Below, one piece after another: positions 31,769 to 60,500 of a stretch of DNA of 64,000 nt. The stretch lies in IMG/VR virus record IMGVR_UViG_3300033998_000198, positions 1 to 64,000 of that record; one strand, 5' to 3'. Origin of the DNA: a virus. A model generated the notes under the pieces. That model worked only from the letters and a program-made list of their open reading frames with translations. It had not been told where the DNA came from and made no database searches. Every line of letters starts with the position of its first letter. Positions within the stretch are counted from its first letter, which is position 1. The position numbers and the translations under genes were made by a program.

Positions 31769-32283
31769 TGAAGGTTGATCTTGATTTTAGAGATGAAATG
31801 AATGAATGGATAAGAGATTATGGGGTTACAGTTCTGTACCAGAGAAGCAGCAATTACATAAAGTGTTCATGTGTAGACCCATTATATAAAGCTCCAGATT
31901 CAAGATGCACCAAATGTAATGGTACTGGCAAATTGATTAAAACTCAGAAGTTGAAGATCCTGATGCAGGAGCAATACCCTCCAAACAGAAAAGGACAGAG
32001 AAAAGGACAGTATGATTACTCTCAAGTTGGACAAATATACGCTCCTCAGATAACTTTCTACTTTGTCCATAACGAACCACCTAAAGTAAAAGATATAGTT
32101 TATATAGTCGGTTGGGATAAAGGAAGACCAGTAAATCTTATCAATATGTATGAGATCACGGGATTCCAAGGACATAGAGGGGAAGACGGAAGAATAGAAT
32201 TCTATATGATATCGGCAACAAGCAAGCCAGAACTGATGAGCAGGGGTAAAGAGTATTTAGATAGATTGAGGCGAATGAGATGA
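31768..32283 (+). CDS. Head-closure/neck protein with a Zn finger
   Basis: 'CSCVD...PDSRCTKCNGTG'; position between adaptor and sheath; overlapping start/stop. Confidence 0.55.
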   Translation: MKVDLDFRDEMNEWIRDYGVTVLYQRSSNYIKCSCVDPLYKAPDSRCTKCNGTGKLIKTQKLKILMQEQYPPNRKGQRKGQYDYSQVGQIYAPQITFYFVHNEPPKVKDIVYIVGWDKGRPVNLINMYEITGFQGHRGEDGRIEFYMISATSKPELMSRGKEYLDRLRRMR

Positions 32284-42359: not shown

Positions 42360-43066
42360 TGGAACAATTACAAGCATTCGATCTTTTGGTATTCAAGGAG
42401 CAGAATGAAGGTCACAGGGTCATGTATATCAATATTTGTAATCGTGAGTTTGTATTTAGGACTCTTGGAAAGAAGGAATACAAGAACATCCTGAATGTTG
42501 CAAATAATGAATTTGATCTCGAAGATATGATATGCCAGATTGCTTTGATATACCCTGAAGACTTTGACTTCAAGGATTGTCCTCTTGGAGGGTTGTCAAA
42601 GACAATTGCTCCTTTGATTACCGAACTTTCCGGATTTACCAATCCTGAGATCGTCCAGGAGACTTACGACCAGTATCGCCTGGAAATGAATAGTTTTGAG
42701 AATAAGGCATATGCCCTCATTAAGATGGCATTCCCCGAATTTACGTTTGAAGAAATGGAAGAATGGACATGGGATAAGGTTCTCAAGGTTGCAACAAAGG
42801 CAGAGTTTATCCTGAATGAAACTCACTTTAGAGATAACCCTATCGAGCTTGTCAAAGTAGACACTACGCCGCAGAAACAAATGGAACGCACTGAGTTTGT
42901 TCAGGAACTGCGGCAACAGGGTATTGACCCGATGAAATATTTCTGGAATGAAATTAATGTCAAGCCTCAATATGTAGACTTTCCGTTAATCGGTGGTGTG
43001 CATTGGCAGAACGAGGGGATATTGAATGAGATCAGACGACAGATGGAGAGAGCATCTAAGAGGTAA
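42359..43066 (+). CDS. Tail assembly chaperone 2 (paralogue)
   Basis: 'EFVFRTLGKKEYKNI...EDMICQIALIYP...GGLSKTIAPLITELSGF'; TAATG coupling to chaperone 1. Confidence 0.7.
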   Translation: MEQLQAFDLLVFKEQNEGHRVMYINICNREFVFRTLGKKEYKNILNVANNEFDLEDMICQIALIYPEDFDFKDCPLGGLSKTIAPLITELSGFTNPEIVQETYDQYRLEMNSFENKAYALIKMAFPEFTFEEMEEWTWDKVLKVATKAEFILNETHFRDNPIELVKVDTTPQKQMERTEFVQELRQQGIDPMKYFWNEINVKPQYVDFPLIGGVHWQNEGILNEIRRQMERASKR

Positions 43067-46000
43067 ATATCCAGAGTATCTGGGCAGACAGAGAAAATGG
43101 GCCGAAGATTATGACAGAGACGATACCGTAAAAGACGACAGCATCTTATCAAAACTGCTTATCGCTGCGGCGATAGGTGCTGCCGGATATGGTTTATATA
43201 AAAGCGGTGCATTAAGAAAGGCCATCAGTAAAGGCATTGATGAATTAGGGGAGTATAAAGGCGTTATCCCTGAAGCATTCAATGCCTTAAAAGCATGGAC
43301 TAAAACTGATGTGGATGTTCCAATCGGAAGCATATTCCGTCAGAATTTTTCCTCCTTAAAGTCTGTATCTAACTTTGTAAAGAACAAGGACATTATAAAT
43401 GACACCCTTGCCGATTTACGTGGTCTTCGTGAAATGGTTCAAAAGAGGATCGCACAGGTTAAAGATGAAGCCGACAGGATTACCAAAATGGCTGTCAAGG
43501 AAACAGACTTATTGTTTGAGATAGGTAATCTCAATGAAATGATGGATTCTGTCAAAGCAGACGATATACTGAAACGCCACCAAATGGAAATCGGAAACAA
43601 GGCACTTCAGACACTGATAGAAAAGAGAAGCGAAGGAGCTATGTCAAAGGCTGCCCAAGCAAAGCTCAAACAAAATGGATACAGGCTTCTTACTATAGGT
43701 GATGTTCTCAAGGTAGACACACAGACAAATAAACCGTTGCTTATTAACAGCACAAGCAGGTTCGAAGTAGAAGAACAGACATTAAAAGAACTGACAGATT
43801 TCTTCTCTACCTTTGAGGTAATAGACAAAAAGACCGGGAAGAAGTCTCTTGCAATCAATAACTTTGACATGATCAAAGACATCACATTCGATAGAGGACT
43901 CATGATCAATGAGTTCGGAAAGATTGCAGACATAAGGCGAGCTGACAGACACTTTGCACAGATGATGGTTTCTGCTTCGCTTGATTTTCATATACCGTTA
44001 ATAAAGATACGTCCGTTTGAAATGGTCGGACTGCATAACAAATTCATGCGTCAGGAAGTAAAATACGGTTATCTGTCTGCAAAAACATTTCAGCCAATAC
44101 TTACAGGTAAGCCCGGTCAGGAGTATCTCGGCAAGAGCATGGTGTTCATGCACGGTAATGTATTTGACATAGATAAAAACGGTAACATGAAATTAGTTGC
44201 CCAGGGAGGTAAACTGCTCCATATTCGTGACGACGCAAACGTTGGATATGGAATCAGCAAACACGCCGATATCATAAGAAAAATGGCAAACCTTCAGAAT
44301 GTACACTTCCAGACGTACACAGCCGAGGACGGACGAATCAAGGCGGCTTACTCTAAAGTGATGGAATGGTTCGGGCTTGGTTTCCAGGACAAGAAGATAT
44401 CAACGGAATTTGAACTCTTTAAGCCTTCAACATGGGATTCTCTACTTAATAAATGGCAGCCGTTCAGGCCATACAAATCCTCATTTGTAACAAGACCGCA
44501 GGATTCTTTCGGACATTCTCCGACAGGTCCTACGTATTTGTTTATGTATCAAGGCAAGACATTTAAAGACGTAATGCAAGGCAGCGTATCTATAGAGGAT
44601 TTCTTCAAGCAGTTTGTTGCAGGAAGAAAGAACTTGAAGAATGTAACTACGGCAACAATGGTTCCGTATCATCTTCTTGACCGTCTCAGCAACTCGCTGA
44701 GAGCTGTTAGTGCAGGTGGTATTAGCCTTGGCTTAAAGACAGAAGACCTTGGATCGGTCCAGGATATCTTCAAGAACTTGATGCTAAAGCGTATACTTCC
44801 GGTTTATCTTGGCATACAGGCTTGGATATACATAAATAACAAAGAAGAAGGCAAACAGCCTGAAGACAAGATTGCAAATACTGTTGTAAACCTCGACCTT
44901 GCATGGCATGGAGTAAAAGACAGGCTCGGCCTTACATCTTGGGCAAAACGTGTATCTCAGCTTATGCCAGGAGGAGAGCAGATAAGTGACATTCCCGGTC
45001 TTGGAGTTCTCGATATGACTTCAACCAGGGAGGAAAAAGAACAATGGTACAAGACTGGTATGGAGCCAATTCGTAAAGGGCGTTACTGGAGTCTTGGCAA
45101 TACTCCATTTACTGGAGGCAAGATAGAATATTATGCACCAAATTGGTACAGAAGGGTAATCAGCGATTACAAGTGGACAGATTCACAGTGGGGAAGTCGG
45201 GATGAATACTTTGCAAATGCTCCATTTCCGACTCCAAAATATCCTTTCGCTCCAATACGGCACTTTATTACTGACCCGTATCATTGGGAGAAAAAGCATT
45301 ATCATGACAGACCATATATGCTGTCGTCTCCGGCATTCAGTAATGTACCAATAGTAGGTCCTGTACTCAGTGCAACTCTTGGCCGGCTGTTAAAACCACA
45401 GATTCGCATGCATCCTGAAGCATGGGCACCAAAACTTGAAGGGTATTCGGTCGTGGATCAAGGAACAGGAGATAACACCGGTACTGTTCTTCCTGACCAA
45501 TTGGTTGCAACAAATAGGTTTCCTGGAACTGAAATCACAGTTGTCCCTGAAGCAGAAATGGGACAGAAGCCGCTTGATTCATTGTTTCATTGGAGCAGGA
45601 AACCGAAGACCAATACAAATGATATTATATATGTTACGCCAAGCGGGCAAACAAGCATTGTCAGCATACCTAACAGCATCTCAATCAAGGATTTGAACGA
45701 CCAATTACGTAAAGAATCAATCAGGAAAGTCCGTGGTGCGTCTGAGAAACGTGATGGTGGTCTGATTAAAGATAACGCTGTTGCAAAACAACTCATCAGC
45801 AATATCGAGAATACGTTAAATGACCAATACGATGTATTCTCTGAAATTGGAGGTATATATGGATTCGGTATCAATGCTCTTATAGGTAATGGTTCTGATG
45901 TTGGTGGTGTGGAAATCGAAACACCCGCCTATGCGACATCCTTAAATAAAGCATTCTGGGATCAGGATCTCGGTGGACTTGGTGGAGAATTCTCTGAAAT

Positions 46001-48617
46001 CTATCGTAGGTTTATACCAAAGAGAAGGCGTGAGATTGAATATTACAATCCAATCAGAAACACCATGCCTACATGGATGCCGGGAACAGATTATTTTACA
46101 GACTTCCAGCATGGTGATCCTTACGCCAAGATTAAACGTGGAGAAGCAAGACTTCCTGGAGAAGGGTATGAGAAGCTATATGGAATCAGAGACCCTATGG
46201 AGCTCGGAATAGGTTCGTCGTTTATAGGTAAATCAGTTGATGATATCGTTAAACATTTCTTACACCAGGACGAAATCATAGACGAAGACCAGCTTGATAT
46301 TGTGCAATCTGGTACAGATTTTCATGAGAAAGTTCAGTCGGCATGGAAAAAGAAAGGCTTGCTTCTTGATGCAGAAGTTGAAGTTAATGACAGGAAACAC
46401 AATGTCATTGGATTCTATGATGCACGTATTCTTGATGAATCTTCACCAACAGGCGACGCTATTGCTGAAATAAAGACAATCAACGATAATGGGTTTAAGG
46501 AACTTGACAAAAAAGGGCCAATGGATTACCACCAGAAACAGCTTAACTTCTATCTGTGGGCAACACATAGGCCAAAAGGTTATATTTATTACATCAACAG
46601 GGATCATCCGGAACAGGAAGCAAAAATATTCCCTATGGCATATGACCAGAAGATGATGGAAGAAACATTCAAGAATCTTGAGCAAGCCAGGAAGATCATC
46701 AAAGACAAAATAGCCTTAAATGAGATCCAAAGAGGAGACTTGTACGATTACTTTGACAGGTTCCGCATACTTGCAGATGTAGCACCATACTCAAAAGAGT
46801 TCAAAGAATACAGGGCTTTGATAAGCAAGATGCAGCTAACCAAGGAACAAGAGGCTGAAGCAAAGGAAATACGTAAGCGTGTAATTGAACAAAACAAACC
46901 GCTTAGGATATATCCTTATAAATTCCAGACTTCAAACATAAAAGTACAGACTGTAACTGTAAAACGCAAGATAGACAACGAGAAGTTCCTTACATATGAG
47001 TTCCCTGACAACCCAATAGAGCTTGCCGGCGTTAATCTTCCTAACAGCAAAACTTCCAAAGAAGGGAGGGCAGCAACTCAGTTTATTGACCGGTTTATCC
47101 ATGAAGGAGCCAGGATACAGGTCGGAGTTGATGCAGACCCGTTGAACCTTATACAGGATAACACTTATAAGACGATCAAAGCTGTCGTATACTCAGGCAA
47201 GACAAACATCAACCGCACGGCAATACAGCAGGGAGTAGGAAAGGAAAATGAAGATGACTTCTCGCCTGCCGGTGTTCATGCTCGTTTTACCGAAGGTGAA
47301 ATCAGATTCGGCAAAGTATGGGAGAAATTCGCTCACTTGAATACTATGTTCCATATAAAGTTCTTGCAGGTAAGGTCTGCACTTGAGAGTTATGAACGCA
47401 GGGATTTATACGGCAAAGACTTTCAAAGATGGGAGCATCCTATCCGGGACTTCCTCCGCCCAGCAATCGACCAGAATATAAACAACAAGTATGGAATACT
47501 GGTTGGCGGTTTGGTCGGCTCATTGTTTGGCCGTACACTTTATGGTAAAATTATAGGAGCAACAGTTGGTGTTGCAGTAATTGGTTCAGGTAAGGCATAC
47601 AAGAAAGCATATGAATTAATTTCAGGTGAGAAATGGATACCTGAACGCAGGGAAAAAGAACGTGATTTAAACGAATACATTGACATCCTGAAATTTATCA
47701 AATACAAGCGATTGTATGTTGAGTATGCACAGAAATCAAAACTCAAGGAGAACTTTGATGTTCAGAAGTTCCTTGACGCTCAGAAAGCTCGTGGTGAAAA
47801 AAATAAAGCAAGAATCAAGGATCTTGAAGAAGCAAAGAGGTTAATAAAAATCAAGGGCGACAGTGCAATACGGTCGATGTATAAACAGTATAGACCAAAA
47901 TACGGCACCCCAGGAATGAACGTGGACGAGATGATATCTGCAATCAACAAAGAAATGACAGAACTCATGAATGAACGAAAGGCCGTTAAAGTTCCAAAGA
48001 TTGCACAAAAGGCCATTGCATACTACAACTTATCAGAGAAGACCATGTACGGATACGATGTCGGAGAGCCTATCCAAAACATCCTGGCCGCAATGCCAAA
48101 GAAGGATAGACAGTATCTCAGTTACTTTATGAAAGCTCCGGAAGAAGAACGCATGAAGATTCTTGAGGTGGCTCCACGGTATGTCCGCAGGGTTCTCGAA
48201 CAAACATGGGGGCTGCCTGTTGAGGGCAAACCAGATCTTATTCAGTATTTCAAGCACCATCAACTTCCAGGACCTGACTGGGAAGGATGGGATGAAAACA
48301 TAAACCTGGATCTGGTTAAAGTTAAAATGGTTCGTAATGAAGCCCTTGATATTTCAGATTTTAATATCTGGGAAGACGACGTGCAGCAGGCAAAAGCAAT
48401 GGGACCTATTCCGCTGCCTAAACTATATATAAGTGACTATGCAGAGAAGGTAAAGGCAAAACTCGAAGATCTACTGCACGGAATAGGACTAAACGACGTA
48501 TCTGTAAGCTATTCTCTATCATCAAAGGATATTGATGTAGATATAGACCTGCAAAGAGACAAAAAGAAAGAGATAGAGAGGTACATTAACGAAAAAGGTG
48601 CATCTCTATTCCAATAG
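43026..48617 (+). CDS. Tape-measure-position protein with a PD-(D/E)XK nuclease and an SNase-like domain
   Basis: 1863 aa directly after the chaperones; Gly/Ala hydrophobic stretches; motifs GTDFH1100, E1117, D1132, E1148-I-K1150 and Q1172LNFY; SNase-like segment at ~46950-47260. Confidence 0.75.
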   Translation: MRSDDRWREHLRGKYPEYLGRQRKWAEDYDRDDTVKDDSILSKLLIAAAIGAAGYGLYKSGALRKAISKGIDELGEYKGVIPEAFNALKAWTKTDVDVPIGSIFRQNFSSLKSVSNFVKNKDIINDTLADLRGLREMVQKRIAQVKDEADRITKMAVKETDLLFEIGNLNEMMDSVKADDILKRHQMEIGNKALQTLIEKRSEGAMSKAAQAKLKQNGYRLLTIGDVLKVDTQTNKPLLINSTSRFEVEEQTLKELTDFFSTFEVIDKKTGKKSLAINNFDMIKDITFDRGLMINEFGKIADIRRADRHFAQMMVSASLDFHIPLIKIRPFEMVGLHNKFMRQEVKYGYLSAKTFQPILTGKPGQEYLGKSMVFMHGNVFDIDKNGNMKLVAQGGKLLHIRDDANVGYGISKHADIIRKMANLQNVHFQTYTAEDGRIKAAYSKVMEWFGLGFQDKKISTEFELFKPSTWDSLLNKWQPFRPYKSSFVTRPQDSFGHSPTGPTYLFMYQGKTFKDVMQGSVSIEDFFKQFVAGRKNLKNVTTATMVPYHLLDRLSNSLRAVSAGGISLGLKTEDLGSVQDIFKNLMLKRILPVYLGIQAWIYINNKEEGKQPEDKIANTVVNLDLAWHGVKDRLGLTSWAKRVSQLMPGGEQISDIPGLGVLDMTSTREEKEQWYKTGMEPIRKGRYWSLGNTPFTGGKIEYYAPNWYRRVISDYKWTDSQWGSRDEYFANAPFPTPKYPFAPIRHFITDPYHWEKKHYHDRPYMLSSPAFSNVPIVGPVLSATLGRLLKPQIRMHPEAWAPKLEGYSVVDQGTGDNTGTVLPDQLVATNRFPGTEITVVPEAEMGQKPLDSLFHWSRKPKTNTNDIIYVTPSGQTSIVSIPNSISIKDLNDQLRKESIRKVRGASEKRDGGLIKDNAVAKQLISNIENTLNDQYDVFSEIGGIYGFGINALIGNGSDVGGVEIETPAYATSLNKAFWDQDLGGLGGEFSEIYRRFIPKRRREIEYYNPIRNTMPTWMPGTDYFTDFQHGDPYAKIKRGEARLPGEGYEKLYGIRDPMELGIGSSFIGKSVDDIVKHFLHQDEIIDEDQLDIVQSGTDFHEKVQSAWKKKGLLLDAEVEVNDRKHNVIGFYDARILDESSPTGDAIAEIKTINDNGFKELDKKGPMDYHQKQLNFYLWATHRPKGYIYYINRDHPEQEAKIFPMAYDQKMMEETFKNLEQARKIIKDKIALNEIQRGDLYDYFDRFRILADVAPYSKEFKEYRALISKMQLTKEQEAEAKEIRKRVIEQNKPLRIYPYKFQTSNIKVQTVTVKRKIDNEKFLTYEFPDNPIELAGVNLPNSKTSKEGRAATQFIDRFIHEGARIQVGVDADPLNLIQDNTYKTIKAVVYSGKTNINRTAIQQGVGKENEDDFSPAGVHARFTEGEIRFGKVWEKFAHLNTMFHIKFLQVRSALESYERRDLYGKDFQRWEHPIRDFLRPAIDQNINNKYGILVGGLVGSLFGRTLYGKIIGATVGVAVIGSGKAYKKAYELISGEKWIPERREKERDLNEYIDILKFIKYKRLYVEYAQKSKLKENFDVQKFLDAQKARGEKNKARIKDLEEAKRLIKIKGDSAIRSMYKQYRPKYGTPGMNVDEMISAINKEMTELMNERKAVKVPKIAQKAIAYYNLSEKTMYGYDVGEPIQNILAAMPKKDRQYLSYFMKAPEEERMKILEVAPRYVRRVLEQTWGLPVEGKPDLIQYFKHHQLPGPDWEGWDENINLDLVKVKMVRNEALDISDFNIWEDDVQQAKAMGPIPLPKLYISDYAEKVKAKLEDLLHGIGLNDVSVSYSLSSKDIDVDIDLQRDKKKEIERYINEKGASLFQ

Positions 48618-48628
48618 GGGGTTAAAGC

Positions 48629-51600
48629 ATGGCAATTAGACCGGTAATGAGTGCTAATATGAACAGTAACCTGAAGATGAACAGGTATAGTGATTTCTTC
48701 AATGGCATGGATGAAGAAAAGATTGACGCATATAAAAACGTCCGTGGAATGATAGATGAGTTAAAAGGTACTGAAGCCGACGTATCATTAAAGGACTTTT
48801 ATTTCAAGTCATTCAATGCAGGAGTAATGGATTATAACATTCCTGCACTTGAGCAAGGCATGAATATGTTTAATGATATGCTGGACGCCGGTGCCGGTTC
48901 TGTGTACGCAATGGACCTTGAAACTCTCGGCAACCCTTTTGGTGATGCATCAGAAAAGGGTTTGTTTGCCATTACAGAAATGACTCTTACCAAGAAAGAT
49001 CTCGCAACAGGTACTGTCCTTGACGTACAAAACGTCCTGTTCGGCCTTACTGAAGAACAAAGGCTTGCTTACGAAAATCTGATTGCCAGAGCTGAACTCG
49101 GATACAACTCATTGACCAGTTCAGAAAAGGCAACTATAGAACGTCTTGCAAGGTATGGAGCAAAGGATACTAAGATTATTAACAGAGGAGGCAAAGCAAT
49201 ACTTGCCAACCTCGGTATAGCTAATCCTATGGATCTTACCGCAGCAAAGAAGGGTTTAAATAGACTTGTAGATATAGGTCCCGGGCAGGCATGGGGTAGC
49301 CAGTTTGCCCGTGACCAGCTAATCATTGCATCAAATCACTTAAATCAGATAAAAGGCCCAAACAATATTTTGTTCACACACAACGGCAGCAAGTTTGATA
49401 TGCCTGCTTTTAACGAAGCATTACGTATGCATGGTATTAGCAATACAATTAACGACATAAACCATGTTGACTTTCAAGCTGCCATTCATACAGCATATGG
49501 TGGAGATACACTGAATCTTCACTTAACAGCCCGTGAAACAAACGGTGTAAAAGGTAAGATTAAAGGGGCTCTTGAAACTCTTGATAAACTTGCAGAATCT
49601 TTTGGTATAAGGACTCACGCCCATGTTGCCTCAAACGACAACAGGACGTTGATTAACCTTTTAACTGCTCCGTACAGGAAAACTGAGCATGGTACAATCA
49701 ATCTTGGCCAGGACTTAAAGTCCAGACTGAATGCATATTCAGTTCTGTCAAAACACCAGGACATTGATCCAAGCACTGTTGCTGACAAGGTTATATTCGT
49801 AAAGAATGCCGTATATACAAATGGTCTTGACTACATAAAAACAAGTGAAGGAATCAAACCTTACGGAGACTGGCCATTACAAAGGAATAATTTCTATAGG
49901 ATTGAAAATGTCGGGAAAGTAAATATCAAAGACACCGCTTCTTTGCGGAAGATAGGCATAAATGTGCCTGCCGGAAGCACTGGAAGTGATCTTTATTATA
50001 TGACACTACGCAATGTGGCTACCGGTAAAGAAGAAGAAACAATAAATATAGTACGTAGTTCAAGAGAAGAACTTCAGGCATTGTTCCAGAAAAATCTTGA
50101 GGTGTTCCGGTACACTAAAGACCTTAAAGATATAAGTTCAGACCTTGACGCAAAGATGGCATTGCAAAACCAGATTGTAAGCCAGGCAATGATTGATGAA
50201 ACGACAAGGCTTGCCACAAGGGACAATGCAAGACGTAAGTTTGAAGGTATGTTCCAGACTTCAGGTAAAGGGTTTAATTATGCCAAAGGAATGTACCAAA
50301 CCTATAATAATTTATACCAGAACGGCATTACAACAGCGGAAGAAGCGGCACTCTATATCCAAAACAATCCTACAAGTGAATTGTTAAGAGGTCTTCAGTA
50401 TAAAGGAGATATTATACCCGAACGTCGTAGTGATTTCCTTGAGATGTTCAACCTCATCAGAGATACTTCAGACACGATGACTACTGTAATCAACAGAATT
50501 GAATCCAACATCCCAGTCAAAGGAGAAGCTGGAACCGTCAAAAGGACTGTTGCTCTCGGACGTGCGTATGAGAATCTTCAGAATGCAATTATGCAAGCCT
50601 CCGGTGTTGCTGAGAACATAGCAAAGAACAGGAAGCTGATAACCCCATATCCAATGGATATTGACGTTATTAATATAGGTGTTGATGACATTCATAGAAT
50701 CACTGTAAGGGCTCGTTCTGTTGAAGAAGCAAGGATTAACATATTAAATGGAATAGACAAACTGGTAGGTACAGAGAAGAACAAGAGGGCAAGAGAAAAC
50801 AAACGAATGTTCTATCTAAGACGGCTTGCAGAGAATGTCTATGGAAAAGATTCAGAGAAGCTGGAACGTATGTTTGGTCAGCTTGACAGTGCATACTATA
50901 CTGCCGGAGAAATTGCAGGCGACCTTAACAAACAGTTCCTTGACGGAACATTAAATATCGGCCGTGACGAGATATACGCTACAGATCTTGATAGTTATGT
51001 CATCAATTCATCTACATTTGACCAGTTCATGGTTGATAATAACATTAACGTTCTTGGCTTGACCGACGCTGCAAGTGCCCATATCGGGTCTTTAACCGAG
51101 GCTTCTCTTGGCGATACAGTTGTCATGGAAAAAGGCGTGTTTACCATTAAGGATGAAAACCTTAGAAAACTCTTGATGGAGGATTATCACTATAGTGCAG
51201 ATAACGTGCACGACCTTATGAGAGGATTATATGGTAAAAGTCCGGATGGTACTGAATACGGCCTTGTCAATAAACATGGTTTGGTTGCCGAATTGTTTGT
51301 TGACGAAGAAGGGTATCTTTCTATAGCATTGACAGACAAGAAACATGCAACAGAATTATACGAATCTCTGGCAAAGAACGAGGTTCCAAAGAACGCGGCC
51401 ATATCAAGGCTTCCGCAGGTAAGCTATTATGGCGATGACACTGACCTGTTAAAGAAGGTGTCATTTGGAAGCGTTGAGAAACAGGTAACTACTGAACTTA
51501 ATACATATTATTCTCCTGGTTCGAGCGAAAGCTATTATAATAACATCAGGATAGCTGCAAGGGACACAACCAGCGAATCGCTAAACTCCCTTGTTAAACT

Positions 51601-54600
51601 CCACAGGGTTCTTCCTGACCTGATAGAAGCAGGAGAGTACGACAGAGCTTCAAGGCAGCTTACAAATACAATGGCTGCTCCTATATTTGGAGGTTCTGGT
51701 TTCTCAGGAAATACAACAGTAGCAATTGACGATATTCTTGCTGAAAAAGCTCTGCGTCCGAACGTATCCGATATTATCACGGCATCGACCGTAGATATGA
51801 CCGGACTTGTAAACTTCATCCCTGAGCTCTATAAAAGAGACGAAGAAATAAGAAATGACCTTAACCGCATACTTGTAAACAACAAAGCGATCGACGACAG
51901 ATTTATTGATAACTGGATAAGGGATATCCAGGCAGGAAACCTCAAACAATTCAGTGACATGGACATCGAGTTACGTGAATGGTACACGATGAATATGTTT
52001 GAAGGTCATAAGATACTGCATAAAATCCGCGACCTTAAAGCTGAAGGAGGACGTTTATTCCAGAAGGAAGTCTCATTACTTGACAGCTTGATTGCAAATG
52101 GAGCTTCGTTCTTTAACAAGGCTGAAAAAGTATCTGAGGGTATTGCTGTATTGGAAAATCCATTTGAGTATGTAACATATGGATTCATGAATGAGCTTTC
52201 CCGTCCTGTCGCAAGGCAATCACTTGCATTTCACGCCCTTGACCCAAGAGAACTTACAGGTGCTTCAGTTAAGCTCGAAGCGGCCGGTATGAAACTTGGA
52301 CAGACTGTAGTTACAGACAAAATGTATAACAAGTATCTGAAAAAGTATAGGTTTGAAACAGGAATTACCGGTGACATAAAGAATTTGAATGACACCGAGA
52401 TACTTGATGCAATAGAATCTCTTGACAAAGAAGAATTATACAAGAAGTATGGTAGGTCAAGAGTTGATAAGGTTATAAATGAATATAAGACAATCGGTAG
52501 TACATTCCAGCAGCACTCATTGATTAATCCGATGCTGACTGCTGACATATACAACAAACCTGAGCTTATAAAATTTGATGTGACAGGCAATAGTTTTGAG
52601 TTTGCCGAAGGGCTTGGTGTTGGTAAAAAAATCAAATCCGGTTCTTTACTCGGATACGAAATAGACGGAGAAACAAGAAGGGCTGTTGTATACAATGGTC
52701 AGGATGGAATAATCTCTGGATTTATCAACAGAAAGAACGCACAAAAAGTTGTCATAAAACCATTTAATGCACAGATAGATGAAATAAAGCTCATCATGGG
52801 AGGTGTTGAAAAATCTGTTGCATCTGTTGTAAACCGAGATGCCGAAATGCTTCCTATAGCTCAGGAAATCTGGGATAAACTATTTGGTAAGAGTACAGCG
52901 GTCGTAGGGCGATTTGAAATAGGAAAGCACGAAGCTGCAAGCATCGCATACGGTAGCACTATTACCAGAATGGCTGAAAGAGCTCTTGAGCATGGAGAAG
53001 CTGTACAGAATGAATTCGCCAATCTTTTAAACCAGAACCTTCCCGAATGGAATGGCCGATGGGAAGGAAACAAGTTTGTCATTTCAGGGAATCCGAATGC
53101 TGCCGGAGGACATTTCAGCGGCATACGAAACCTTGTTGATGCAATGAGAGATAAGGGTATTTATGATGATATCATAGCCGACTTTGACAATCCGAACACA
53201 AATACGCTGCGTACTTTGATATCTAAAGGTCAGATGTCCGAAATGTTTTCTGTCATGGAAGACGAAGCGGATATTTACGGAAAAGGTCTCAAAATTACAG
53301 ACCGTGAGTTACAGATTGCAGGTATTAGATCTGGAGAACAACCGACGGATTTCTTTTTCCAGGATGCCAACGGTAAATGGCAAAAGAAATTACAACCTGT
53401 TATTGACGCATGGCGTGAGGAAATCACACGAGAAAATATCGAGCTTGAGAACGGTAAATTACTTGAAACCAATTACAGCAAAGCAAAGAAAGACCTTAGA
53501 AATATAACCAACACATACAGTGCATTGCGTGGCGAAACACCGACAGCAGCTATTAAAGAACTTCATTTTGATGATGTAAAACCGATATTAAAAGGTGTTG
53601 ATGCTGCAACACTCGAAGATGCTTTAAAAGGGACTGTGTTTGAAGATGTTGCCGATGTGTTTAAGATTACCCTTCCAAATAATATGAAGGTCTTAAACAT
53701 GGTTACAGGCGAAATGGATGACCATATTTATATACCGTATCTGCACTCATACGATATTGACGGCAAGGTTATTACACATAACGCCCACAGAAAATCAGCA
53801 GACCTTCTAAGGATGCTTGACAGTATTGCCGAAGGCAAACTTCCTAACGGCGTAAGAAGCATGAGTCAATTACAGAGTGCATTAAATGACGCTTATGCTG
53901 AAGCTATGGCCGCATACGGGCGTGAACTGTCTGATGACAAGAACAGTATATTAAAGAGACATCTGGTGTCCGGAAGATTATCACATTCGGGACAGGGACT
54001 TGCTGGTGCTGTTGTTTCACCTGAATTATTCAAAAACGGCGAAGTAGATTCACGGCTTGCCGGAATTGTGCATAGCGATGTTGTAGAGAAGGTCGGAGAT
54101 AAAATACTCTATAAGGATGTTGCTTATACATCTGCTGAGATGCTCGAAGACATGGGTGTTAACTTTGCAGAGATAGGGCGGCAGGTTCTTGAAGACAAGA
54201 AAATACGTTCTCAGATTGGTGACGTGGACGCATTTATTGCAAGATCCGGATTTAACCGCTATGATCTTACAAAGGCACCTATAGACATTGACATGCTCCA
54301 TGAGATCATCAAGCAGAAGATACTGAAAGACAACAATCCTTATACAATAGATGATGCAAGGGAAGCCCTTGAGAACCTCACTCAGCTTGGTAAATATTAT
54401 GCAAGAGAAAAGGGTATCATGAGTATAATGCTTCGTTATCCGTCATTCTTGCAAACATCTCTTGGAGTAACAAATATCAGATTGTCTCCTTACATGCATG
54501 GTCGTAAATTCAACATCATGAGTTGGACGGCAGCAGGATTAAACGCCGACATTGACGCTGATAGACTTTCTGTATGGCTCAATCTTACAAAAACCGGAGG

Positions 54601-57523
54601 ACTTCAAGCTGATACTGAAGTTAAACAGAAAGCACTGATAGATGTATTTAACGCTCAAGCAAGAAACAATGCCAAGCTATTTAAGAAGGCTCTTGAAGAT
54701 TATGCCGACGTAGAGCCTGACGGACTCAAGGCTTATAGTGCAAAAGGCTTCGATGAATTTCTTGTCAAGAAGATTTCAAAGAAGTTAGGGTACACCGGAA
54801 CAGATCAGGAAATCTTCGACCAGTTTGATGCAAGATCCAACAAACTGATGGACCCTGAAAGAAGAATGACAGCCGTAAAGGCCAACTTTGACAAGGCCGG
54901 TATCGGTTATATATCAAACACTAATGTGATTGTAAGGGATATAGCTTTTGAACAATTCAGAGATTCTGGTGATATATATACACTTTCAAACATCCTTGAG
55001 TTTACAGACAAGACAGAGCAGAAACTGATTGACGTTAAGCATATGAAAACAATGGGCGAGGGAAGCGGTAATATTGATGATATCATTATCAAAGCCGGAC
55101 GATACAGAACTGCAATAAACACCCTCGCAACAGGTGATGCAAGGCAAAAAGATGAAGCAATCAACAAACTTCGTGAAATTTTGTTCAATAGTGATGTTTA
55201 CAAGAGAGAGCAGTCCGTAAGGGTTGATGAAGTTCTCAGTTCGCTCCGTCAATTGTTTGACAGCAAGTATGCAAAACAATGGACAAACCCAATCAGAAGC
55301 AAGATGTCAGGAAAAAATTATGCCGAACAGATTAAGGACGTCAATAACTTCCTGAAGAATCCCACAGCATACGGCGGGACTGAGTTAACAAATCTTTCTG
55401 TCAATGAAGTGATTCATGCAAATGATATAGACACTATAAGCATTGACGATACAGCTCTTGTTCCTCCATCAAAAGGAACAGAATATCCCGTCTTGCTAAA
55501 GGACAGTGCTGGCAAAACATCTCCACCAATAGGTGCATATGTATATAGTGGTTCAGGTGTTGGTGCCAATACCAATATGAAGTATGTTGAGCTTGAAGAA
55601 TTCATCACAGATCCTTCTGTAAACAAAGCAAGAAGCAAACGTTACAGGATATACGGCAATACAATGGCTGATATCCAGCGTCAGATGAGAGATGAGTTCA
55701 GAGTAGCAACTGACATCAATGATGTCCAGAATTTGATTGATGTTGAGAAGGGTAGAATCCTTGACTCGGCGATGTCAAGCGGTTTTGAGTTCGAGAAAGA
55801 GCGTATTACGGCTGAATTCTTAAACGGTGGAAGTATTGATGATATTTTGGCCAAATCAACCATAGGGGTAGAGAACCGTCAGGATATCATCGATCATCTT
55901 ACCAATCTTAACCCTACTCAATATCAAAGCGAAGCATACAGGCAATTGGCTTCAGAGTTCTTTGACAACGAAATGACTGGCCGGCCAATGCGTAGATTCT
56001 CTGCCGCAGTATCAGAACTGGCTGAAAGAAATTACATTGGAAACCAGGCAAGTCTTATACAGGCATTTAATAACTATATACGGCAACGTGGTGCTGAAGG
56101 CCCTTCAGACAAATGGAATCCTGCAATGATTTCAGATGTCCATGATGAATTAATCCGAAAGGCATTGTATCAGGTTCCAGGTCTTCCATCAGCACAGATA
56201 GAAGGAATCCTAAACCAGGTTAACACCGTAGCGGACGATATGATAGCCCGTAAAGGAGAAATACGGTTAAGACCTGCTAAAGTACAGAATGTTGCCGAGA
56301 CTATTGCAAGAATACAGGATACTCCATTGTATGACATGAAAAGTGCCTTCTCTCAACTTGAGAACATGGCAAACGATATGTTAGGCAATATAACAAAAAC
56401 TCAACTGGAAAGTTTTGCTGAAGCAACACGGCTTAGTCCCGAAGATGCTATCGCAAAACTTAGGCATACTGTAAAGAACGAGAATATCCAACTTCCATTC
56501 AAGGCAATCACTCAGGCTGAAAGCGTTAAGATAGCTTCGCTTAACCAAATGTATTCAGAGCTTCTTGCGTCAAAGAACCAAGAAGCAATGGATTTCCTTG
56601 GCTGGAAACCTATAAATGAAGTTGTCAACGCATACAACCCAAGTGCGGCAGCAAGAGCTGTAGGTGAAACTTACGACCCAATTGCGGCCATACGTGAAAT
56701 TGGCCAATCCAAAGTTACTTATGGAAGATATGCCGGCATGGAGTTCTCGTCATTATCAATCGGGGAGCTCAAGGAAATTATGAATCTCCGTCCTGAAACT
56801 GCAAAGACCAGAATTGAAGCGGACAATATTGTAGCTCTCAAACAAAGAGTAAATCAATATTTCTCATTGCTTGACCAGAATACATCAGCAGTAAGAGCTG
56901 AAGGAATTAGTATAAATATTCCTGAAGCTGTACGCAAATCGAGGTATGTTGATGTAGATATAAACGAACTTTTAAAGTCCAATGGTATAAAGTTAAAGAA
57001 CTTGGACGATTTATTGGATACAACCAAAAGGGACTTAAAATTTGATATGGCTCGTGGTACAATAAAAGAAGGGGTAGAAAATGCTGTCAAGCGTTCCGAA
57101 GATTTGTTTGGAAGCAGTAAGTTCGGAAAGATAGCTCTTGCCGGTTTGGCTCTTGGTCTTGCAGGATATATTGTTGGACAGATGAGTGCAAAACCAGGAC
57201 CGCTACAACCGGAGCATAGACCTTCAGGCGAAGGAGCTCCCGCACCAGATGGAACTTACGAACCGAAAGTCAACTATAAAACACCACAACCGCAGATGCC
57301 AAAGAAAGCAGTAATGCAGGAAAACAATTCTGGAATGCGGATAAAGATAAGTGCAAAGAATGGAACCAGCATGTCAAACAGTGATGTTGCTGGAGCAGTA
57401 AACAAAGCCATCGCTGATTCCTTGCCAAATAGAATGAATGTCAACGTGGTTTCAAGAGACGACACCAGTGCAGTCAATGACAGTTGGTTGGAAGAACAGT
57501 TTAAGAGGCTTATAGGAGGGTGA
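48629..57523 (+). CDS. Giant single-chain two-barrel RNA polymerase with an N-terminal DEDDh exonuclease (putative virion RNAP)
   Basis: beta-like: PF...RQ1197, K1387LIMGGVEK1395, G1553LKITDRE. beta'-like: SGR1783LSHSG, LR1936YP, N1972ADIDAD1978. Exonuclease: D96LE98, H251NGSKFD257, H332VASND337. Confidence 0.85.
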   Translation: MAIRPVMSANMNSNLKMNRYSDFFNGMDEEKIDAYKNVRGMIDELKGTEADVSLKDFYFKSFNAGVMDYNIPALEQGMNMFNDMLDAGAGSVYAMDLETLGNPFGDASEKGLFAITEMTLTKKDLATGTVLDVQNVLFGLTEEQRLAYENLIARAELGYNSLTSSEKATIERLARYGAKDTKIINRGGKAILANLGIANPMDLTAAKKGLNRLVDIGPGQAWGSQFARDQLIIASNHLNQIKGPNNILFTHNGSKFDMPAFNEALRMHGISNTINDINHVDFQAAIHTAYGGDTLNLHLTARETNGVKGKIKGALETLDKLAESFGIRTHAHVASNDNRTLINLLTAPYRKTEHGTINLGQDLKSRLNAYSVLSKHQDIDPSTVADKVIFVKNAVYTNGLDYIKTSEGIKPYGDWPLQRNNFYRIENVGKVNIKDTASLRKIGINVPAGSTGSDLYYMTLRNVATGKEEETINIVRSSREELQALFQKNLEVFRYTKDLKDISSDLDAKMALQNQIVSQAMIDETTRLATRDNARRKFEGMFQTSGKGFNYAKGMYQTYNNLYQNGITTAEEAALYIQNNPTSELLRGLQYKGDIIPERRSDFLEMFNLIRDTSDTMTTVINRIESNIPVKGEAGTVKRTVALGRAYENLQNAIMQASGVAENIAKNRKLITPYPMDIDVINIGVDDIHRITVRARSVEEARINILNGIDKLVGTEKNKRARENKRMFYLRRLAENVYGKDSEKLERMFGQLDSAYYTAGEIAGDLNKQFLDGTLNIGRDEIYATDLDSYVINSSTFDQFMVDNNINVLGLTDAASAHIGSLTEASLGDTVVMEKGVFTIKDENLRKLLMEDYHYSADNVHDLMRGLYGKSPDGTEYGLVNKHGLVAELFVDEEGYLSIALTDKKHATELYESLAKNEVPKNAAISRLPQVSYYGDDTDLLKKVSFGSVEKQVTTELNTYYSPGSSESYYNNIRIAARDTTSESLNSLVKLHRVLPDLIEAGEYDRASRQLTNTMAAPIFGGSGFSGNTTVAIDDILAEKALRPNVSDIITASTVDMTGLVNFIPELYKRDEEIRNDLNRILVNNKAIDDRFIDNWIRDIQAGNLKQFSDMDIELREWYTMNMFEGHKILHKIRDLKAEGGRLFQKEVSLLDSLIANGASFFNKAEKVSEGIAVLENPFEYVTYGFMNELSRPVARQSLAFHALDPRELTGASVKLEAAGMKLGQTVVTDKMYNKYLKKYRFETGITGDIKNLNDTEILDAIESLDKEELYKKYGRSRVDKVINEYKTIGSTFQQHSLINPMLTADIYNKPELIKFDVTGNSFEFAEGLGVGKKIKSGSLLGYEIDGETRRAVVYNGQDGIISGFINRKNAQKVVIKPFNAQIDEIKLIMGGVEKSVASVVNRDAEMLPIAQEIWDKLFGKSTAVVGRFEIGKHEAASIAYGSTITRMAERALEHGEAVQNEFANLLNQNLPEWNGRWEGNKFVISGNPNAAGGHFSGIRNLVDAMRDKGIYDDIIADFDNPNTNTLRTLISKGQMSEMFSVMEDEADIYGKGLKITDRELQIAGIRSGEQPTDFFFQDANGKWQKKLQPVIDAWREEITRENIELENGKLLETNYSKAKKDLRNITNTYSALRGETPTAAIKELHFDDVKPILKGVDAATLEDALKGTVFEDVADVFKITLPNNMKVLNMVTGEMDDHIYIPYLHSYDIDGKVITHNAHRKSADLLRMLDSIAEGKLPNGVRSMSQLQSALNDAYAEAMAAYGRELSDDKNSILKRHLVSGRLSHSGQGLAGAVVSPELFKNGEVDSRLAGIVHSDVVEKVGDKILYKDVAYTSAEMLEDMGVNFAEIGRQVLEDKKIRSQIGDVDAFIARSGFNRYDLTKAPIDIDMLHEIIKQKILKDNNPYTIDDAREALENLTQLGKYYAREKGIMSIMLRYPSFLQTSLGVTNIRLSPYMHGRKFNIMSWTAAGLNADIDADRLSVWLNLTKTGGLQADTEVKQKALIDVFNAQARNNAKLFKKALEDYADVEPDGLKAYSAKGFDEFLVKKISKKLGYTGTDQEIFDQFDARSNKLMDPERRMTAVKANFDKAGIGYISNTNVIVRDIAFEQFRDSGDIYTLSNILEFTDKTEQKLIDVKHMKTMGEGSGNIDDIIIKAGRYRTAINTLATGDARQKDEAINKLREILFNSDVYKREQSVRVDEVLSSLRQLFDSKYAKQWTNPIRSKMSGKNYAEQIKDVNNFLKNPTAYGGTELTNLSVNEVIHANDIDTISIDDTALVPPSKGTEYPVLLKDSAGKTSPPIGAYVYSGSGVGANTNMKYVELEEFITDPSVNKARSKRYRIYGNTMADIQRQMRDEFRVATDINDVQNLIDVEKGRILDSAMSSGFEFEKERITAEFLNGGSIDDILAKSTIGVENRQDIIDHLTNLNPTQYQSEAYRQLASEFFDNEMTGRPMRRFSAAVSELAERNYIGNQASLIQAFNNYIRQRGAEGPSDKWNPAMISDVHDELIRKALYQVPGLPSAQIEGILNQVNTVADDMIARKGEIRLRPAKVQNVAETIARIQDTPLYDMKSAFSQLENMANDMLGNITKTQLESFAEATRLSPEDAIAKLRHTVKNENIQLPFKAITQAESVKIASLNQMYSELLASKNQEAMDFLGWKPINEVVNAYNPSAAARAVGETYDPIAAIREIGQSKVTYGRYAGMEFSSLSIGELKEIMNLRPETAKTRIEADNIVALKQRVNQYFSLLDQNTSAVRAEGISINIPEAVRKSRYVDVDINELLKSNGIKLKNLDDLLDTTKRDLKFDMARGTIKEGVENAVKRSEDLFGSSKFGKIALAGLALGLAGYIVGQMSAKPGPLQPEHRPSGEGAPAPDGTYEPKVNYKTPQPQMPKKAVMQENNSGMRIKISAKNGTSMSNSDVAGAVNKAIADSLPNRMNVNVVSRDDTSAVNDSWLEEQFKRLIGG

Positions 57524-57530
57524 GGTCATA

Positions 57531-60500
57531 GTGGCAGACTATAGAAAAAGCACTTCCCTGTTCTCTAAATACAGAGATCCGGGAGGTATTAGCACAGGCG
57601 AGCTATTAGACAGATATTACAACATTCCCGAAGGCAGGACTACAGCTCCCCTGTCTTACCTTGATAATGTCGATTTTCCGCATAGGATATTCGATTTCCA
57701 TTATAACTTCAGACTTGGCGATTGTCAGTTCAAGATCCCTCCGGAATTCATACAGGTAAAGACAATTACCGAAACAAATTCCGTTGTAGGAATTAGACAG
57801 TCTACTTCGCTAAAAACCAAATCCGGGTATAGCCGTAAACAGATCGTTATTACTCTGTTTTTCAACGGACTTAACCAGATCAACGGATATAAATGTGAAT
57901 CGCCTTTTTCATATCCTTACTACATGGACGGTCTCCGGAGTCTTCTTGCTCAATTCAAGAGGACCCCGTTCCTTCCTGTTGTAAATGAACTTATTAATGG
58001 AGTACATGGAATATACAATGTAGCATTATCAAACATTACAATCAACACCGTACAGGGGTTTCCTGAATGTCTCCAGGCGGAACTCACGTTGCTTGACTTT
58101 AACGTCGTACCGTTGATTGAAGCTCCTCCTTTTATGTATCATAACATGATAGACTGGGATATGTTCAGATGGTACTATCAGCAATTACTTCGCCCTGATG
58201 ACAGGGTATACGACAGGAACGAACATGCTACAACAAGACTTCAGCCGATACAGAATACAAACCTTACAGGTAAGTTCGGATTGTATATATTAAGCGAAGA
58301 AGCTCTTGCTGCAATGAACGACGGAAAGTACAAGCCAGACCTAAGCGACAGCAGTAACTATATACTGTGTGTTGACGACGAAACCGGTATACGCCTGACA
58401 GATATATTCTGCGGTTACTCAAACGTGCTTCCTGCAATACAGTTAAGCAAAGAAGGGACGCCTACGTATCAGTATCTTGGAGGTACAGATGCGACGTTTA
58501 CCTTTATATTTGAAACTCAGGACAGAGATGTCGTTACGGCTCTGGTTGACTTAAATGAACGATGCCAGAGGATGGTAAGGGAGTACCGCAAACTTCACGG
58601 CCTCGGCTTCATCAAAATAGAGAACGAATTAGTGCAAATGCTCGGTGCACAGTATGTCATGTTCAATACAATGGACATCACTACTGTGCCCGACTTCCCA
58701 GATTTGTTTAGAATACAGATAGAGGCTGTAAGTTACGATATTGACCAGAGTAAGAAAGAAACATTGACTGGCATGAAGCCTTTCGATGGCGATGGCACAT
58801 TGCTTGCCAGAAAAGTAGGTACAACCTATGATTGGACTGAAGTCGCAGAACCAAACACAACCATCACTAACACTTATATGGGTCTTATCACAAAGATCCG
58901 GCAGGACAATTACATAGAACACAAGATGAAGCTCATGGACCTTTATCCGGACCTTCAGCTACCTACGTTTGAAGAATTGGATGATTTTATCACAACCATA
59001 AGAGAATGGAGAAGGAGTAAGGGGCTTCAGGCATATCCTTTGTCTGGACCGTACCCGAAAGACGACGGTAGAATTAAATTCTCAGATCCTGATTTCTACG
59101 TTTTCTACCCTATTAAATACGGAGACGCACAGAATATTATAACAGGAACCGGAGGAAATGTAGGAGGAGAAACTTACGATCCTGATGACGGTGCAATTTC
59201 AGTTGCCGGTATATTCAAGTCTGGATTGTATGGTGCAACAGAAACTACGCCCGGACAGCACCCAAAGACACAAGAATTGCTTAAACTTCTTGAGAGCAAA
59301 ATAGGATGCGGATATGTATGGGGTGCTGAAGGAGAGATTCTTACTCAGGAAGGTCTTGCTGCCTTAAAGAAGCAATTTGGAGCAAGTCATTATGATTTTG
59401 TTGATGATGATGGCACTCGTGTTCTTGCAAGTAAATGGATAGGTAAACAGGTGTTCGACTGCTCTGGATTTATTAACTGGGGGCTTATCCAGGTTGGAAT
59501 TGCTCCAAAAGGATACAGAACCACACATTCAACTACTTTTAATGACTGGTGTATCGAAATCAAAAAGAGCGAAATACTCCCTGGCGATATAGCCATGAAT
59601 TCAACCCATATCGCAATGATATCTGATCCTGACAAAGATCAAACAATCGAGGCTATGGGTACACGGTACGGTGTTGTTCACGGAAAGATAGGGAATAGAT
59701 TCACAAAGTTTGGAAGACTAAAAGGCGGAAAGACAAAGAGCTCAACAACTCCAACACCGAATGCCGCAACTCAACAGGTTAGCAAGGCACAGACTACAGA
59801 TTACAATGCAAAGCGTGATGCTTATAACCCGACATACCAGGCAATTTACGATTATGCAAACATACAGTGCACAAAGCTCGGCGTTCCAATTCGTCTAATG
59901 TGTGCAATGATGGAGATAGAAAGTAATTGGACACAATGGTGGACGACAGCAGGGAAGAAAGCGGATGGCAAGTACCATAACGCAGGAGATGTTGTAAGGT
60001 CTTACGCAAATGCTGTTGGTATCTGCCAAATTGTGCACCATAGTCCTAACGGTACTCCTGTCAATAATCAATACGATTATGACAAACTGCAAAATGACTG
60101 GAGATATAATATAGAGTGCGGGGCCAAAGAACTTTATGAATGCTATAAGGGGGCATCACAAAGATTTACAAATGAAGAAGACCGAGCAAGAGCTGCATGG
60201 TGTGCATATAACATGGGGCGTTATGCAAGTCAGAGCTATACAAGATGGAGAGATAACCCTAACAGGGATGATATAAAGTTTAAGGAATATTATGAGAAGC
60301 AACCCTGGTTATCGAGAATTGACACCGCAAAGATTCCGACTTCCAATGGGACAGATTACACTGGAAGCGTAGAAGTTCCAGAAACCGACCTTAGTGTTAC
60401 AAACAACTTTGCAAGTCTTAACTTCAACAGGGAGGAATTCGGCAAAGATATACGCAGACTGTCCGACATCCACGGCGGTGTAAAAGAAACCAAGAACTTT

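Follow-up and report, generated by a model that had tools for sequence, protein, structure and literature searches.

Virion-delivered RNA polymerases (RNAPs) are the means by which several groups of phages start infection without the host enzyme. To our knowledge, the only characterized virion RNAP that is fused to a tape measure protein is that of phage P23-45. In this Thermus siphovirus, the 5,002-residue tape measure protein gp96 carries an N-terminal two-barrel RNAP that transcribes the pre-early genes; one of these encodes a second RNAP, which is non-virion (Chaban et al, 2024; PMC10770324). The polymerase was proposed to be ejected with the tape measure protein, with transcription coupled to the entry of DNA through the tape-measure pore (PMC10770324). 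That study mentions no exonuclease or other nuclease for gp96, nor any nuclease for the crAss-like fusion as described there, and none is mentioned in the 2026 structure paper on the N4 virion RNAP. Here we describe a gene in a 64,000-nucleotide stretch of viral DNA (positions 1 to 64,000 of IMG/VR record IMGVR_UViG_3300033998_000198, referred to below as the window; coordinates are on its plus strand unless stated otherwise). An uninterrupted open reading frame of 2,964 codons at 48629–57523, taken from the list of open reading frames and its translation, encodes a protein of 2,964 residues that is predicted to comprise, from N to C terminus, an exonuclease, a region without a known fold, β-like and β′-like RNAP modules, and a C-terminal anchor.

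By analogy with P23-45, we give about an even chance to the reading that this is a virion-delivered protein in the tape-measure position, which provides the RNAP for the first genes and an exonuclease that acts on DNA 3′ ends, either at the terminus of the entering genome or else in host DNA.

The N-terminal exonuclease domain

Residues ~70 to 372 (48836–49744) are predicted to form a genuine DEDDh (DnaQ-like) 3′–5′ exonuclease domain with all five catalytic residues present, an assignment that draws on an AlphaFold2 model, Foldseek and VIA-align comparisons, a profile search of the PDB, and the Pfam and PHROG matches of family members. An initial annotation of the DNA had placed an intact exonuclease at 48860–49660, within the limits of the modelled domain, and its three motifs are found at the residues given there. 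Exo I (D96-L-E98, 48914–48922) lies in the stretch AMDLET, which starts at nucleotide 48908. Exo II (H251-N252-G-S-K-F-D257, 49379–49399) starts at nucleotide 49379 and aligns with Exo II of TREX1-like chains; its N252 and D257 are invariant and its phenylalanine nearly so. Exo III (H332-V-A-S-N-D337, 49622–49639), which starts at nucleotide 49622 and supplies in H332 the "h" of DEDDh, aligns with the H-x4-D motif of TREX1. Between the strands that carry Exo I and Exo II, residues ~140 to 245 (49046–49363) form an insertion of ~100 residues that is modelled as helices and a β-hairpin and has a family-specific consensus motif of its own, LTxxExSTxERLxRY.

An exhaustive phmmer search of 1.8 billion cluster representatives (clusters at 50% identity) with residues 1 to 420 as query retrieved 16 relatives. 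Each of these stands for one cluster, and the family is therefore rare. Twelve of the 16 relatives are 2,512 to 3,120 residues long, with the exonuclease domain N-terminal in each, and the remaining four are short and look like contig fragments. Family members were aligned at full length (alignment A1), over the N-terminal exonuclease (A2), over the RNAP core (A3), and in a tighter alignment (A4). The D96-L-E98 motif of Exo I is invariant in A1 and A2, as H332 and D337 of Exo III are in the family. In the 15-sequence N-terminal alignment, where mean column identity is about 30–33%, 14 of ~430 columns are invariant, and these include D96, E98, E117, N252, D257, H332, and D337. The initial annotation had made its case depend on conservation of the acidic residues, and D96, E98, D257, and D337 are invariant in 13 to 15 homologues that are 20–40% identical. 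By alignment, the conservation of the motifs is far above chance.

This pattern bears on the possibility that the domain is without catalytic activity and serves as a plug, either structural or bound to DNA ends, situated at the head-proximal end of a protein in the tail lumen, where it would hold or protect the genome terminus. The C terminus of a tape measure protein lies at the tail tip, so that the N terminus is near the end of the DNA, and DEDDh folds bind 3′ ends; both points would suit a plug. However, neither the Exo II asparagine nor any of the five catalytic residues varies, even among sequences that have diverged to ~20% identity, which would not be expected if selection acted on binding only, and we consider a silent plug very improbable.

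Comparisons of profiles and of predicted structure lead to the same class of enzyme as the motifs. A profile built from the N-terminal regions of the family matches TREX1-type chains best in the PDB (E 2.5e-7), followed by TREX1, the exonuclease domains of family-B polymerases, RNase T, and DnaQ, and the alignments pair Exo II and Exo III residue for residue. Among 15 family members, RNase_H_2 (PF13482) is matched by 13, RNase_T (PF00929) by four, and PHROG family phrog_403, "DNA polymerase exonuclease subunit", by eight. The AlphaFold2 model calculated from the family alignment has a predicted local distance difference test (pLDDT) score of ~90 across residues 70 to 370 and shows the RNase H-like α/β architecture of the DnaQ fold that the initial annotation had anticipated. 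Foldseek matched this model solely to DEDD-family exonucleases and to family-B DNA polymerases that bear an exonuclease, with probabilities of 0.87 to 1.00, reaching 1.00 for stand-alone DEDDh enzymes (TREX1, RNase T, DnaQ, and ExoI); RNase T and complexes of TREX1 with RNA are among the matches. With VIA-align, Z scores of 12 to 13 at a root-mean-square deviation of ~3 Å were obtained for the DnaQ domain of Cas2-DEDDh, the N-terminal domain of Staphylococcus aureus DinG, ExoI, TREX1/2, and the ε subunit of Pol III, with 168 of 172 residues aligned at 3.0 Å for the Cas2-DEDDh DnaQ domain (8h18). A search of the ESM Atlas with the N-terminal region gave weak leads only (0.87–0.88, including some RNase_T clusters).

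Searched alone, the window protein yields little, because it is too divergent for its relationships to be recovered from the single sequence in this way. The full 2,964 residues gave only a sub-threshold match to DUF7605 in Pfam and residues 1 to 400 gave only sub-threshold Pfam matches to RNase_H_2 and the XMAP215/CLASP TOG domain; there was no match in PHROGs or in a phmmer search of the PDB. Pattern scans based on A4 found zero relatives in JGI metagenome contigs and GTDB genomes and yielded neither a prophage copy nor a host assignment. Against phage records, there was no match in tblastn with either the whole protein or its RNAP region as query, nor in megablast with 20 kb of window DNA. 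Word-indexed protein searches with residues 1 to 420 and with the RNAP profile returned the self-match only, a result that is uninformative on relatives without the exonuclease.

The RNA polymerase core and the rest of the protein

The center of the protein, residues ~1167 to 2247, is predicted to be a single-chain β plus β′ two-barrel RNAP core that is nearer to the multisubunit type. The initial annotation had already taken the protein to be an RNAP, and the AlphaFold2 model, Foldseek, VIA-align, PDB profiles, and invariant catalytic residues all bear this out. The model of residues 1150 to 2250 has a pLDDT of 78.7 and a predicted template modelling score of 0.78. Its best 50 Foldseek matches are all β′ chains, with probability ~1.00. 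In an unbiased VIA-align scan, model residues 18 to 392 matched second-largest subunits with Z scores of 11 to 13.9 (Pol I A135, NRPD2 of Pol IV, Pol III, vaccinia virus, African swine fever virus, plastid β, AR9, and phiKZ), and model residues 482 to 1098 matched the largest subunits (Rpb1, A190, and β′) with Z scores of 8 to 9.8. The matches to QDE-1, RDR2, and the non-virion RNAP of P74-26 cover both halves, with Z scores of 7.6 to 8.6. We therefore place a β/Rpb2-like module at residues 1167 to 1541 (52127–53251), from VIA-align, and a β′/Rpb1-like module at residues 1631 to 2247 (53519–55369), from Foldseek, VIA-align, and the PDB profile. Within the first module, residues ~1309 to 1383 (52553–52777; model residues 160 to 234) form an SBHM/flap-like insert that resembles biotinyl/lipoyl-type hybrid barrels and RNAP β-flap chains (VIA-align Z ~7). 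An SBHM insert is typical of cellular-type β subunits and absent from YonO/RNA-dependent RNA polymerase (RdRP) types (PMC7824862).

Seven reference residues of two-barrel RNAPs are matched in the protein, namely K1387/K1395, R1936/P1938, and D1974/D1976/D1978 (reference positions Rpb2 K979, K987, and D837 and Rpb1 R446 and P448 are from PMC2919709). The lysines K1387 and K1395, together with E1394 (52787–52813), are invariant in A1 and A3 and occur in the full-length alignment in the context KxxxxGxEKxVxS. From their spacing of 8, the same as for Rpb2 K979 and K987, and from their position within the matched region, we infer that they are the counterparts of these two residues. For the eighth reference residue, the aspartate Rpb2 D837, inspection by eye found no invariant acidic column upstream of K1387, and at the candidate position, in ST-x-[EQ]-[QG], the window protein has a glutamine. 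In the β′ double-psi β-barrel, the R-x-P motif R1936-Y-P1938 (54434–54442) is invariant and aligns with the RNPTL/NRAPTL sequences of phiKZ and bacterial β′. The metal-binding motif N1972-A-D-I-D-A-D1978 (54542–54562), in which D1974, D1976, and D1978 are invariant, follows the family consensus NxDxDGD, aligns with NADFDGD of phiKZ and bacterial β′, and is the sole DxDxD in the 2,964 residues. In a PDB profile search with the RNAP region, all 28 matches were to β′ or γ chains, the best being β′ of the phiKZ non-virion RNAP (E about 0.001–0.002), and the profile alignment pairs RYPAF...NADVDGD with RNPTL...NADFDGD.

A polymerase joined to a DEDDh exonuclease is the classic arrangement of a replicase, and archaeal PolD demonstrates that two-barrel enzymes can be DNA polymerases, so the core might make or prime DNA, with the DEDDh domain as its proofreader. 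Against this, the sequence and fold matches are without exception to RNAP β or β′, to QDE-1 or RDR2, or to phage RNAPs, PolD does not appear among the best of them, and the family consensus NxDxDGD is that of RNAPs. We regard a DNA polymerase as extremely improbable.

The initial annotation had also described the exonuclease as fused to the N terminus of the RNAP, and this needs to be refined. One polypeptide does hold both, and exonuclease and RNAP occur together in every full-length homologue found (12, plus the genome G001), so that the fusion is retained in the family. However, the two are not adjacent, with ~800 residues between the exonuclease and the β-like module. This intervening region (residues 373 to 1166, 49745–52126) is conserved in the family, with D532, R535, and R536 among the invariant columns of A1, and gave no signal in Pfam, PHROG, PDB, or ESM Atlas searches.

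Beyond the RNAP, a hydropathy scan identified a single Gly/Ala-rich hydrophobic helix at residues 2832 to 2850 (57122–57178). A hydrophobic helix occurs at the equivalent relative position in seven of eight family members scanned, the eighth, P0004, having none. The helix is followed by a C-terminal module (57155–57517, ending ...WLEEQFKRL) that is shared with gp146 of Bacillus phage 0305phi8-36. In an hhalign comparison of A1 with gp146, these last ~115 residues, which end in WLExQF, are the sole matching region (probability 87.5, E 3.6e-6, 113 columns). The ~580 residues between the RNAP and the helix (55370–57121) are conserved in the family and have no known match.

At the 5′ end of the gene, a Shine-Dalgarno-like GGGGG was read directly from the sequence at 48617–48621, 8 to 12 nucleotides 5′ of the ATG. 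It overlaps the final base of the stop codon of the upstream gene (48615–48617), and the open reading frame begins 12 nucleotides beyond that stop.

Phage context and related genomes

The genes of the window, which are strand-biased, form a single phage structural module. Among their products are a portal and two paralogous tail sheath proteins, the larger of which is 36–37% identical to the sheaths of 0305phi8-36 and Moorella phage MTATph1. The gene order of the module is sheath, tube paralogues, two small genes in the chaperone position, a gp145 homologue, the 2,964-residue protein, and a hub homologue. In 0305phi8-36, sheath, tube paralogues, and two chaperone genes precede gp145 (1,930 residues), gp146 (2,537 residues), and gp147, in this order. 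The upstream neighbor (43026–48617, 1,863 residues) is 34% identical to gp145 from end to end (BLASTP E 0), and the downstream neighbor (57531–63161, 1,876 residues) is a homologue of the hub/cell-wall hydrolase gp147 (BLASTP E 3e-62 in several blocks; phrog_20474 E 5.7e-287). Because these neighbors are clear homologues of gp145 and gp147, the gene for the 2,964-residue protein is the positional counterpart of gp146. The record of 0305phi8-36 carries virion mass-spectrometry notes on gp145 and gp146 and none on gp147, and it labels gp146 a "hypothetical tape measure protein". The same arrangement, in which a gp145-like giant is followed by a protein of ~3,000 residues and then by a downstream giant, recurs in 10 further metagenomic loci; in nine of these the downstream giant has Pfam matches to cell-wall hydrolases, and locus L007 has a smaller upstream gene instead.

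From these matches, the phage is a relative of the contractile-tailed, long-tailed myovirus 0305phi8-36, and the 2,964-residue protein is better regarded as a multi-domain protein delivered with the virion than as an RNAP to which a proofreader is appended. A crAss-like podovirus, which the three giant genes had suggested, is ruled out by the tail sheath genes and the synteny with 0305phi8-36. The protein and gp146 share their position between gp145 and gp147, are of a similar size class, and have homologous C-terminal segments of ~115 residues. They differ in that gp146 has no DxDxD and gave no match with either profile, exonuclease or RNAP. In 0305phi8-36, the sole two-barrel RNAP is the separate YonO-like orf99 (PMC2147016).

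The record from which the window is taken is itself a 132-kb fragment, ~61% complete. A 38%-identical relative of the protein sits in a complete genome of 199.8 kb (G002) with direct terminal repeats. This genome also encodes a separate RNAP of the PF05183 (YonO/eukaryotic RdRP) type (1,190 residues; L018, G002:64350-66182, minus strand; E 1.8e-34), as does G001 (1,409 residues; L019, G001:120172-121350, minus strand; E 3.5e-24). Therefore, these phages would have two RNAPs each, as P23-45 does. Neither the A3 core profile nor PF05183 found a second RNAP in the window's own record, a result that is uninformative given that the record is ~61% complete. The PF00940 (T7-like) profile had no match, and the controls were equally unmatched.

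Several of the neighboring gene products have features of their own. In the gp145 homologue, residues ~1119 to 1225 give a weak Cas4/PD-(D/E)xK signal (phrog_1990 E 1.2e-5; PDDEXK_1 E 0.12; PDB 4ic1 E 0.012), and the E-I-K motif of this protein aligns with D-I-K of 0305phi8-36 gp145. By these matches, it would be a second nuclease-like domain, located in a neighboring virion protein. The hub homologue has signals for an SLT lytic transglycosylase (residues 779 to 907) and an NlpC/P60-like domain (residues 639 to 709), and hydrophobic helices near residues 1661 to 1770; hub homologues in related loci have glucosaminidase or lysozyme-like domains in place of SLT and NlpC/P60. The sheath paralogues (32280–33830 and 34652–36961; 516 and 769 residues) have one open reading frame of 283 codons between them, as gp137 and gp139 have gp138 between them in 0305phi8-36. 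The N-terminal half of the 508-residue product of 37904–39430 matches a PHROG family named "major head protein", which is noted as a tail tube or tube paralogue in 0305phi8-36, and its residues ~357 to 438 match endolysin-family profiles; a module for cell-wall binding or lysis may here be joined to a tube paralogue.

Possible roles and comparison with known systems

The tape-measure position is occupied in MTATph1 by CDS0027 (OR602862.1 30512-34441; L020/L021), a protein of 1,309 residues whose gene follows that of the gp145 homologue. Residues ~861 to 1067 of CDS0027 make up a related DEDDh domain, in which VLDLET, VTEIA, NVVGFDIP, and HEALTD are all present, along with a recognizable form of the insertion motif (hhalign probability 91.6, E 8e-7). 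The domain is internal in CDS0027, in contrast to its N-terminal location in the 2,964-residue protein. A search with the RNAP-core profile found no match across the MTATph1 genome. A transposase gene and three small open reading frames come after the CDS0027 gene. These observations suggest that the exonuclease belongs to the protein in the tape-measure position rather than to the polymerase as such. Because MTATph1 has the exonuclease without an RNAP core, the exonuclease would not be obligatorily coupled to transcription, which weakens a role in proofreading.

The initial annotation had listed three possible roles, namely proofreading or trimming of transcripts, processing of the incoming genome ends, and degradation of host nucleic acids. 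The exonuclease could serve the attached RNAP by removing misincorporated or backtracked nucleotides from the RNA 3′ end, or by trimming transcript 3′ ends, as a dedicated proofreader like the nsp14 ExoN of coronaviruses. The two modules occur together in all 12 full-length homologues and in G001, DEDDh enzymes include RNA exonucleases, with RNase T and TREX1-RNA complexes among the fold matches here, and phage single-chain RNAPs lack Gre-type factors. Against these points stand the ~800 residues that separate exonuclease and RNAP, the related exonuclease of MTATph1, and the finding that the closest relatives in both sequence and structure are DNA exonucleases; in addition, it is hard to see much need for high fidelity in a virion RNAP whose output is a few early transcripts. 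We consider this role unlikely. It is distinctly unlikely, in our estimate, that the protein is the first two-barrel transcription enzyme with a built-in exonuclease that edits or processes its own product, whether by RNA proofreading in a DNA-dependent RNAP or as a virion-delivered proofreading DNA polymerase or primase.

The exonuclease might instead be an injected nuclease for host takeover or counter-defense, which on entry would break down nucleic acids of the host, DNA or RNA, or else small signals made of nucleic acid, independently of the genome end and of the RNAP. By analogy with P23-45 gp96 and N4 gp50, it would reach the cell ahead of all phage gene expression; it occurs both with and without an RNAP, and a neighboring virion protein may have a second nuclease-like domain. 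However, the few copies that would enter the cell from each virion, tethered to a membrane-associated protein, would be a poor design for bulk degradation, and the Pfam and PHROG results contain no match to a defense system, the defense library itself not having been searched. We think such a function quite improbable.

We favor a DNA-directed role at an end over transcript proofreading. This preference is inferred from the MTATph1 exonuclease that occurs without an RNAP, the gap of ~800 residues, the relationship to DNA exonucleases, the weak Cas4/PD-(D/E)xK signal in the gp145 homologue, and the terminally redundant genome of a relative. The nearest fold matches (Cas2-DEDDh, the N-terminal domain of DinG, ExoI, TREX1/2, and ε) are enzymes that we take to act mostly on DNA. 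In the process that we envisage by analogy with P23-45 gp96, the tail or another part of the virion would hold the 2,964-residue protein, whose C terminus would lead on ejection. As the genome enters, the RNAP would transcribe its first genes, and a separate YonO-type RNAP, of which two related genomes each encode an example, would take over later. The N-terminal exonuclease domain, for its part, would require Mg2+ and act in the 3′–5′ direction on DNA 3′ ends and not on the nascent transcript. Its likeliest substrate would be the terminus of the entering genome, where it could expose a single strand for an RNAP that has no σ factor or allow terminal repeats to anneal; otherwise, its substrate would be host DNA.

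Several points weigh against the proposal of a tape-measure-position protein with a DNA-end exonuclease. All of the relatives were retrieved with the exonuclease domain as query, so that RNAP-bearing relatives without an exonuclease could have been missed. CDS0027 of MTATph1 may be an interrupted or damaged remnant that has lost its RNAP. A choice between DNA and RNA as substrate is not readable from the DEDDh fold, and RNase T and TREX1-RNA are among the matches. Lengths in the family fall within a narrow range (2,512 to 3,120 residues), but both regions that were modelled have globular folds, whereas a classical tape measure protein is helical throughout. Finally, the assignment of gp146 as the tape measure protein is tentative and was made from tail length (PMC2147016).

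If the proposal is correct, it would extend the tape-measure type of virion RNAP to phages of about 200 kb that have contractile tails and resemble 0305phi8-36, with a polymerase that resembles fused cellular β and β′ more closely than the known tape-measure-fused case does, and with a strictly conserved DEDDh exonuclease, a feature found on no described RNAP. The initial annotation could name no characterized RNAP with this architecture, and full-text literature searches likewise found no description of an RNAP fused to a DEDDh domain, although their coverage was incomplete and the result is absence of evidence only. Action of the nuclease on the end of the entering genome would amount to a hitherto unrecognized step of DNA processing that is linked to both ejection and the start of transcription, and action on the transcript would be a new solution to RNA proofreading. 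The exonuclease domain is small, soluble-looking, and directly assayable, and the family supplies a compact single-chain β–β′ polymerase for structural and evolutionary work.

In coronaviruses, the DEDDh exonuclease nsp14 ExoN is functionally attached to the RdRp and has a proven role in proofreading. That system differs from the one described here in its polymerase fold, in its RNA template, and in having the exonuclease as a separate protein, and it is an analogy for the proofreading alternative only. With known DEDDh exonucleases (ε/DnaQ, Cas2-DEDDh, the N-terminal domain of DinG, ExoI, TREX1/2, and RNase T), the window domain shares the DxE, NxxxFD, and Hx4D motifs and the RNase H-like fold, with 165 to 190 residues aligned at a sequence identity of merely 12–22%. 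Unlike them, it has the insertion of ~100 residues with a conserved motif between Exo I and Exo II, and it is fused to an RNAP-bearing protein that is predicted to be part of the virion.

The RNAPs of N4 (gp50) and of phi14:2 (gp66), a crAss-like phage, are likewise giant, multi-domain proteins that are packaged in the virion and ejected. They are, however, capsid-packaged proteins of podoviruses, and the N4 polymerase is T7-like. P23-45 gp96 offers the closest parallel in organization, as a giant tail-gene product with a single-chain two-barrel RNAP that contains DxDxD, with hydrophobic or membrane segments, and with a second, non-virion RNAP in the genome. The tail of P23-45 is non-contractile, and its virion RNAP is N-terminal and belongs to a phage/RdRP-like clade, whereas in the window sheath genes indicate a contractile tail, the RNAP is central, and a DEDDh domain occupies the N terminus. 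The window RNAP also matches β/Rpb2 and β′/Rpb1 more strongly than it matches QDE-1 or P74-26 gp62, and has an SBHM-like insert. P23-45 gp96 is absent from the PDB profile matches and from the best 50 fold matches, while the related P74-26 gp62 matches at a Z score of 7.6. The likeness of the 2,964-residue protein to gp96 would thus be one of architecture and presumed role, as distinct from demonstrated descent.

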